Under the pieces are notes generated by a model. That model did no database searches. It had not been told where the DNA came from and worked only from the letters and a program-made list of their open reading frames with translations. The position numbers and the translations under genes were made by a program. A stretch of 35,580 nt of DNA. Source: a virus. Below, one piece after another: positions 24,260-24,736 of this stretch; position 1 is the stretch's first letter, and each line of letters begins with the position of its first letter. The stretch lies in the UHGV virus genome UHGV-0000037; one strand, 5' to 3'.

Positions 24260-24736
24260 ATGACGCACACACTGAATCCGGTCATCACTGTCACTGTGTC
24301 CGGTCCTGTGGGCAGCGGTAAAAGTTACGTACTGGCGCGGATAGAAGAGATGGTGAAACAGGAACTCGGAAACAGCGTCATTGTCGATGCTGCTGACGTG
24401 GAGAATGAGCGCCGTATGAATGGCGAAGATCTGACGACCTGGCAGAAGCCACGGGGTGGCACAGTGATCAGGCTAGAGGAATACACGGGACAGGGCCTGT
24501 TGTCATACGGCGAGGAGCGTATCTGTCGGACGAATGAGCTGCTGGATGTTATATGCCCCACGGGCCGGCAACCCTGGATACTGCCCGATGCACTGCATGC
24601 CACCATTGCGGCACTGATGACAGTTTACGATCAGGAGCTGCTCATGAAGGAGTTACGTAAACTCACCGGTCAGCCAACAGAATGTTGTTCGTCTCCGAAG
24701 TACGGCAAACAGGAAAACGCCCCGGATAATCCTTAA
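24260..24736 (+). CDS. Small P-loop NTPase/kinase-like protein (orphan, plus strand)
   Basis: ATG at 24260 with AGAGGAG 8 nt upstream; Walker A GPVGSGKS and candidate Walker B SVIVDAAD; 158 aa. Confidence 0.6.
   Translation: MTHTLNPVITVTVSGPVGSGKSYVLARIEEMVKQELGNSVIVDAADVENERRMNGEDLTTWQKPRGGTVIRLEEYTGQGLLSYGEERICRTNELLDVICPTGRQPWILPDALHATIAALMTVYDQELLMKELRKLTGQPTECCSSPKYGKQENAPDNP

Follow-up and report, generated by a model that had tools for sequence, protein, structure and literature searches.

The window examined here, a 35,580-nucleotide stretch of viral DNA (UHGV virus genome UHGV-0000037), is an enterobacterial BcepMu-like (Bcepmuvirus) transposable prophage. On its + strand, at positions 24260 to 24736, lies a gene for a 158-residue protein with a Walker A motif, referred to below as the P-loop gene. 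All genes flanking it are on the − strand: the holin gene, the SLT endolysin gene and the remainder of the late operon to the left, and the genes for a 196-residue protein, a 328-residue protein and a helix-turn-helix (HTH) repressor to the right. The P-loop gene is convergent with the repressor operon across a spacer of 37 nucleotides, and 130 nucleotides separate its start codon from that of the holin gene. An initial annotation, made from the letters alone, had described a 158-residue open reading frame (ORF) with the motif GPVGSGKS, lying opposite to all surrounding genes, convergent with the repressor operon and equipped with a strong ribosome-binding site (RBS) of its own; the ORF map and the sequence bear out each of these points. 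The gene is interpreted here as a short allele, termed N+M, of a phage-specific and module-shuffled accessory gene whose place in enterobacterial BcepMu-like prophages is a fixed slot, divergent from the lysis/late operon. Its identity, linkage and allele status are proposed with good confidence, and the overall reading, which adds a handle mechanism, is favoured by a modest degree. The features of the gene are as follows.

24260-24736, + strand: coding sequence of the 158-residue mini P-loop accessory protein (ORF list, ATG start, phrog_3787 match, RefSeq annotation and ratio of nonsynonymous to synonymous substitution rates, dN/dS)
24246-24251, + strand: Shine-Dalgarno sequence GAGGAG, 8 nucleotides 5′ of the ATG, read from the sequence
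24302-24325, + strand: Walker A motif (P-loop) GPVGSGKS, residues 15-22 (sequence and conservation)
24260-24487, + strand: N-terminal conserved domain (N-domain), residues 1-76 (family conservation; AlphaFold2 (AF2) predicted local distance difference test (pLDDT) above 90 for residues 8-75)
24512-24670, + strand: helical module M, residues ~85-137 (match to family member P0034; three helices in the AF2 model)
24671-24736, + strand: low-confidence tail QPTECCSSPKYGKQENAPDNP and stop codon (pLDDT below 50; the homology and base-composition breakpoint falls here)

The ORF is a real gene and not a chance frame, because it matches a phage protein family, is annotated in RefSeq, occurs in 566-600 of 5426 complete E. 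coli genomes and shows a dN/dS of 0.28-0.34 against the long alleles within E. coli. The family is phrog_3787, whose function is not known, and it was matched with E=2.1e-107 and 359 bits, residues 1-157 aligning to profile positions 1-157 of 242. The window protein is type-identical to RefSeq WP_000149906.1, which is annotated in strain AR_0013. The gene is under purifying selection, with a dN/dS of about 0.3, and the GGAG of its Shine-Dalgarno sequence is retained in an alignment of diverged relatives. The region spanning the holin and P-loop genes was found in 600 of the E. coli genomes, 566 of which cover at least 80% of the query, and Escherichia phage PhiKM is 96.9% identical across it. 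The gene is already catalogued, as PHROG 3787 and WP_000149906.1. The searched literature yielded no description of it: no paper naming these accessions or the PHROG was found, and the BcepMu-related papers are silent on this gene. Three points are new here: a minimal Walker A domain at the N-terminus is combined with shuffled tails in a slot of fixed position, the window copy is a short allele, and this copy is independent of the repressor module.

To define the extent of the family, 1.84 billion representative proteins were searched exhaustively with HMMER, which gave only 64 matches at E<=1e-3. Apart from close E. coli alleles, nearly all of these are confined to profile positions 1-75, at the very N-terminus; the proteins that carry this domain range from 74 to 364 residues, and their remainder differs between members. 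On long viral contigs (L048, L054) the N-domain also stands alone, as proteins of 74-83 residues ending in a stop codon of their own. The conserved pattern opens with a strand followed by GxxGxGK[ST] and a helix; after a second, short strand come a loop bearing E50, W61 and P64 and then an amphipathic strand leading to E74. The sequence GPVGSGKS has the form GxxxxGK[ST] behind a hydrophobic β-strand that characterizes the Walker A motif of P-loop nucleoside triphosphatases (NTPases). Within the motif, G20 and K21 are present in 51 of 51 sequences, G15 in 49 and S22 in 46 (serine or threonine in 48), and G18 is near-invariant. Outside the motif, E50 is kept in 46 of 51, W61 in 44 of 48 and E74 in 49 of 50 sequences, the last of these closing a strand-like segment, TVIRLEE, that is amphipathic rather than hydrophobic. 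The Walker A claim of the initial annotation stands, whereas its Walker B candidate VIVDAAD is weaker than it proposed, D43 being poorly conserved (D in 25, E in 12 and V in 6 of 51 sequences) and the conserved acidic residues being E50 and E74. Between the N-domains of the window protein and the 255-residue member P0034, the synonymous and nonsynonymous differences (pS and pN) are 0.73 and 0.31, respectively. A scan of genome collections was swamped by the generic P-loop pattern and returned a single locus, in Citrobacter braakii. On a distant GC-rich viral contig (L050, 3115-3930 and 4001-4411), an N-domain homologue lies directly downstream of a DPPY-motif DNA methyltransferase gene. Together with the Dam methylase gene that comes next on the same strand in most enterobacterial relatives, this may point to a loose association of N-domain genes with DNA methylases, although no Dam gene is present in the window itself.

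The initial annotation had favoured a genuine small P-loop enzyme, that is, a nucleoside monophosphate (NMP) kinase, a zeta-toxin-like kinase or an ATPase acting on a nucleotide or small molecule. Consistent with such an enzyme, the Walker A motif is invariant, two acidic residues (E50 and E74) are conserved, and weak matches were obtained to AAA_30, Zeta_toxin, cytidylate kinase, PilT and ABC models. However, all matches to named families in Pfam, NCBIfam and PADLOC are far below the curated cut-offs and limited to residues ~4-60; they include AAA_30, AAA_22, KAP, T2SSE, Zeta_toxin and ABC_tran, NCBIfam ABC and kinase equivalogs, and the PADLOC models HerA, SngB and PtuA. The Zeta_toxin model reaches E=0.093 and 12.6 bits against a cut-off of 22.3, over residues 11-47 only, and the guanylate and uridine kinase models reach 0.05-0.07 in the NCBIfam search. 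ABC_tran gives E=0.11 and 13.6 bits against a cut-off of 25, over residues 4-49 only, and the NCBIfam ABC equivalogs reach 13-15 bits where their cut-offs are 266-875. These ABC models, which are far below their cut-offs and match the P-loop segment only, give no support to the RefSeq product name "ABC transporter ATPase". When the 51 family members were scanned singly, weak matches were scattered across mutually unrelated P-loop classes. Similarly, a sequence profile search of the PDB found ABC proteins, CMP kinase, PilT, EF-Tu and UreG at E=1e-3 to 1, all at profile positions 5-48. Profile alignment by hhalign of the N-domain to sequences of PilT (P. aeruginosa) and AroK (E. coli) covered only columns 10-33 and 10-53, and was not used to assign a P-loop class. 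The sequence has no room for lid or NMP-binding domains, and neither family models nor fold comparison revealed a complete α/β core of about five parallel strands, which a 75-residue unit cannot hold. With no kinase or zeta-toxin model at threshold and no P-loop fold found, the kinase reading is not upheld, and an enzyme of this kind is considered unlikely.

Beyond the N-domain, the tails of the family are small helical modules, several of which match separate small PHROGs of unknown function; the C-terminal modules found nothing in Pfam. Module M of the window protein resembles residues 197-249, the C-terminal end, of P0034 (43% identity, E=1e-11) and is found in alleles of 141, 158 and 242/247 residues. 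By these alignments the module is mobile and also forms the end of longer family members of different build, and the window copy is the short N+M allele of phrog_3787. The forms seen in E. coli have 141, 158, 182 and 242/247 residues, and those elsewhere 255, 291, 314 residues and others. The commonest E. coli form is that of 242/247 residues, which shares 92% identity with residues 1-157 of the window protein before continuing into a helical module of ~85 residues. Its representative WP_000194951.1 (242 residues; BcepMu-like prophages of E. coli sequence type 131 (ST131), and XRL29432.1 in PhiKM) is an orthologue that shares with the window the RBS, the 130-nucleotide holin spacing and the intergenic DNA. 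The window allele differs from it in lacking the C-terminal helical module and ending in ...APDNP; furthermore, the window continues downstream with a low-G+C (guanine plus cytosine) repressor operon, whereas ST131 prophages and PhiKM continue with a 134-residue protein gene, a 71-residue protein gene and a Dam methylase gene. The possibility that the P-loop gene forms a toxin-antitoxin pair with the overlapping 134-residue antisense gene of the ST131 type was considered and rejected, since in two loci (L030 and L032) the C-terminal module persists although that gene is reduced to a remnant of 18 codons.

The short allele could be a decaying remnant, namely a 3′-truncated and non-functional piece of the 242/247-residue gene left after recombinational replacement of the immunity/accessory module. 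The DNA homology between the window and the ST131 prophage or PhiKM does end at ~24722-24740, at the stop codon, where the G+C content also drops from ~55%, a value like that of the late region, to the ~41% of the repressor operon; the ~85 C-terminal codons are absent, and the locus is prone to recombination, with IS-disrupted (insertion sequence) and internally deleted copies in existence. In E. coli KA0011 (L006, 4161-7108) the IS66-family element ISEc23 (tnpA, tnpB) is inserted in the 3′ part, leaving a 149-residue ORF, and the 182-residue E. coli alleles P0028 and P0030 carry an in-frame deletion that joins residue ~52 to ~88/125 and keeps the linker and C-terminal module. The 149-residue interrupted ORF is likewise named "ABC transporter ATPase" in RefSeq. 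Against decay, the same 158-residue end recurs in lineages that have diverged by 13-17% in protein sequence: P0008 (83% identity) and P0006 (87%) share the ...PDNP stop, and in P0008 the DNA past the stop is unrelated, the neighbours being a 126-residue protein gene, Dam and another repressor. The short form is neither a one-off nor a recent truncation. Moreover, the N+M-only architecture recurs independently, as in the 141-residue form (at least 24 contigs), 369 sequences belong to the cluster that the 158-residue form defines at 90% identity, and the frame and RBS are intact under the purifying selection noted above. A remnant is therefore improbable. An origin of the 158-residue end from a long allele through a 16-nucleotide frameshifting deletion is weakly suggested, the similarity past the stop being too short to decide.

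The position of the gene is fixed on the holin side. Its start lies ~130 nucleotides from the divergent holin start in 25 of 25 enterobacterial loci of IMG/VR, and the same spacing is seen in loci L008, L012, L018 and L020, which hold members P0034, P0059, P0008 and P0015. The surrounding features of the window are listed here.

23779-24129, − strand: holin gene, 116-residue form (Holin_2-3, E=1.6e-41; holin PHROG)
24130-24259: divergent intergenic region of 130 nucleotides between the holin and P-loop genes (alignment of five diverged phages)
24757-24770, − strand: hairpin AGCCC-TGAA-GGGCT in the 37-nucleotide convergent spacer, read from the sequence, with a T-rich tail on the − strand only
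24774-25364, − strand: gene for the 196-residue protein of the repressor operon (ORF list; phrog_12025 match)
25446-26432, − strand: gene for the 328-residue protein of the repressor operon (ORF list)
26429-26890, − strand: HTH repressor gene of the right-hand operon

Alignment of the five diverged phages revealed three conserved blocks in the intergenic region: TGGAGACAG at 24148-24156, TAAAAT on the − strand at 24186-24181 and GCAGGAT at 24220-24226, the last lying ~45-50 nucleotides upstream of the −10-like TAAAAT. The blocks are candidates for a −10 element of the late promoter and a Mor/C-type activator site. The region probably holds an activator-dependent late (holin) promoter, and the conserved blocks would suit such a promoter, serving the holin operon, no less than one serving the P-loop gene. 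A regulator tied to this promoter, acting on late activation, lysis timing or the downstream Dam methylase, would explain the fixed 130-nucleotide position; the start and the intergenic blocks are kept across diverged phages despite differing gene bodies, and many relatives have a Dam methylase gene next to it in the same orientation. However, the late promoter itself explains the conserved blocks equally well, BcepMu lacks the gene and the window lacks any Dam gene. Furthermore, the gene body is exchanged for unrelated modules, which is unexpected for a core regulator. In E. coli strain 503440 (L005, NZ_CP025881), an unannotated 107-residue ORF at 2160-2483 on the + strand has the same start relative to holin and no N-domain, and it shares its C-terminal module with P0058 (42% identity over 72 residues, E=1e-11), so that the slot hosts module-shuffled genes even without the Walker A domain. 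A regulatory role is accordingly regarded as doubtful.

By contrast with the holin side, the right flank varies. Six IMG/VR loci carry the window-type repressor operon in an identical arrangement, most carry a 134-residue antisense gene, a 71-residue protein gene and Dam methylase, and others differ, usually including Dam. The full window-type operon was found in 97 E. coli genomes versus ~566 with the P-loop gene, so that ~83% of the E. coli copies adjoin other genes; conversely, strain 503440 has the window-type repressor and the 328-residue protein gene and lacks the P-loop gene. The G+C content of the P-loop gene is that of the late region, unlike that of the repressor operon. On the basis of these genome counts and of strain 503440, the gene is linked to the phage backbone at its holin end, whereas its assortment is independent of the repressor/membrane-protein operon. 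It travels, therefore, independently of its right-hand neighbours, which is the co-occurrence outcome that the initial annotation had set as refuting membership of the accessory module; no housekeeping-type homologue was seen. Since its T-rich tail is on the − strand only and the homology and G+C breakpoint is to its left, the hairpin at 24757-24770 is likely the terminator of the repressor operon and part of the neighbouring module; a consensus terminator scan did not call this hairpin and found nothing for the P-loop gene, and the only hairpin downstream of that gene has its T-tail on the other strand. The option raised in the initial annotation, that the gene is an additional component of the accessory module, would have it act jointly with the repressor and both adjacent membrane proteins in exclusion, defence or toxicity, as a single module expressed in the lysogen. 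This is very improbable: the gene adjoins the operon convergently in the window and in the identically arranged 97 E. coli genomes and six IMG/VR contigs, but most copies lie beside other genes, strain 503440 separates the two, base composition differs, the strands are opposite with the operon terminator between them, and no PADLOC model matched.

The preferred reading, a short allele of a module-shuffled accessory gene, extends to a mechanism that is put forward tentatively. The N-domain, too small for a complete P-loop NTPase or kinase, would, as its motif suggests, act as a phosphate- or nucleotide-binding handle, possibly one that also oligomerizes, and the interchangeable helical modules (M in the window; an extra C-terminal module in the 242/247-residue allele) would set partner specificity. 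The gene would serve as a non-essential factor in phage-host or phage-phage conflict rather than as a metabolic enzyme, a role suggested by the shuffled architecture and by the hypervariable location beside Dam methylase genes in most relatives. The gene is in any case dispensable, and it can be absent, disrupted by an insertion sequence or rebuilt with other modules. A bolder version holds that the N-domain is an autonomous natural mini P-loop that completes a nucleotide site only by self-association and serves as the constant handle of a polymorphic phage family, whose shuffled modules would target host or rival-phage factors, for example through nucleotide sequestering or sensing in immune evasion or exclusion. 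Self-association of this kind could explain a confident AF2 model without an intramolecular sheet, and this version is considered rather improbable.

Several observations weigh against the favoured reading and its mechanism. The AF2 model, built from a 51-sequence alignment, has a mean pLDDT of 73, with residues 8-75 above 90, three helices at residues 85-136 at 54-72 and a disordered tail below 50; in the confident N-domain, DSSP assigns no strand, and fold-library searches with the model found no known fold and no P-loop fold. Fold prediction thus gave a confident N-domain, and it matched none of the kinase, zeta-toxin or other P-loop folds among which the initial annotation had hoped to distinguish. 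Showing no sheet, the model does not confirm the P-loop-like structure proposed for the N-domain from its sequence motif. The sheet may be completed in an oligomer or with a partner, or its absence may be a modelling artefact; an earlier low-confidence AF2 model of the 247-residue form (8-sequence alignment, pLDDT 43.6, unusable) had three strands. Some members have a degenerate Walker A motif, namely SGAESSGKN in P0036, P0058 and P0060 and SSPTGSGKS in P0043, which argues against strict catalytic use. The 182-residue alleles, through deletion of residues 53-124, lose half of the N-domain and all of module M. A promoter scan of 24130-24259 found no σ70-type promoter on the + strand; of the divergently shared promoter region described in the initial annotation, the 130-nucleotide divergent intergenic region stands, and a promoter for the P-loop gene was not found in it. 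No defence or anti-defence model of PADLOC-DB matched, the best being SngB at E=0.007 over the P-loop segment only, and the suggested anti-defence or defence factor therefore finds no counterpart there. Finally, the conflict role is inferred from architecture and location, and nucleotide binding from the motif.

The gene is carried by about one in ten complete E. coli genomes, including pandemic ST131, and databases mislabel it as an ABC transporter ATPase. If the 75-residue Walker A domain does bind nucleotides, whether singly or as an oligomer, few known natural P-loop units would be as small, and the fixed-start, shuffled-tail architecture would, if correct, define a new polymorphic accessory-protein slot in transposable phages. 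As the nucleotide-binding mini P-loop handle of a polymorphic conflict protein, the domain would be considerably more interesting; if it does not bind nucleotides, the gene would be one more dispensable prophage ORF. Either way, the gene is now separated from the neighbouring repressor/membrane-protein module, which merits separate study.

Within that module, the 196-residue ORF matches phrog_12025 over its full length (residues 4-196 on profile positions 1-193, E=2e-128), and RefSeq gives only a 127-residue version in strain AR_0013 (L002, 6675-7058); because of the full-length match, RefSeq has probably placed the start too far downstream. In the 328-residue protein, the first ~130 residues show a likeness to Flk, a flagellar regulator (NF007987, E=2.9e-12, far below cut-off); the equivalent gene in related phages has a weak Flk_N (PF27202) match, and the homologue in phrog_6521 carries the label membrane protein. 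In the AR_0013 copy, which is otherwise 99.9% identical over the region, the gene for DUF3486, a Mu gp27-like small terminase, is a RefSeq pseudogene with an internal stop (L002, 3124-3669), and for this reason some copies of the prophage may be defective. An Rfam scan of the whole window gave no match, and a repeat scan of 24100-24800 detected short chance-level repeats only.

In its general organization, the window resembles BcepMu and Mu. The late genes run leftward and the early operon rightward, the latter encoding a Ner-like protein, an HTH protein, DUF3102, an rve transposase and an ExeA-type ATPase; Holin_2-3, SLT endolysin, spanins, a Mu-type portal and gp27 are shared, as is a divergent early operon with an rve transposase and an ExeA-type MuB analogue. 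BcepMu differs in that gp18-gp20, upstream of the holin gene gp21, run in the same direction as holin, and no divergent P-loop gene is present. Morons and hypervariable accessory slots are an established general concept for temperate phages, and the P-loop gene resembles them in being non-essential, opposite in strand to its neighbours, variably present, shuffled and placed between the late and immunity regions; it is absent from strain 503440 and from BcepMu and disrupted by an insertion sequence in KA0011. It differs from morons in that no promoter of its own was found, its G+C content is backbone-like and not foreign-looking, and its 5′ end is fixed while the 3′ modules vary. The interpretation given in the initial annotation is partly supported: the independent moron that it envisaged is upheld in its dispensability, variable presence and independent assortment. 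The N-domain shares with P-loop NTPases such as ABC ATPases, PilT/GspE and NMP kinases a β-strand, GxxGxGK[ST], a helix and the invariant lysine; however, the likeness ends after ~45-50 residues, no family cut-off is reached, no fold matches, and the conserved phage domain of ~75 residues lacks the remaining strands, lid, sensor and signature motifs. Work of the Tawfik laboratory on P-loop prototypes is reportedly related background. Engineered minimal P-loop proteins were among the PDB matches, at levels that are not significant: 9jix, "De Novo Designed ATPase PL2x4_2", at E=0.02-0.03 and 6c2u, "phosphate-loop protein", at E=0.25. These designs and the phage domain are alike in being very short strand-P-loop-helix units, and the natural phage domain differs from them in its additional conserved residues E50, W61, P64 and E74.
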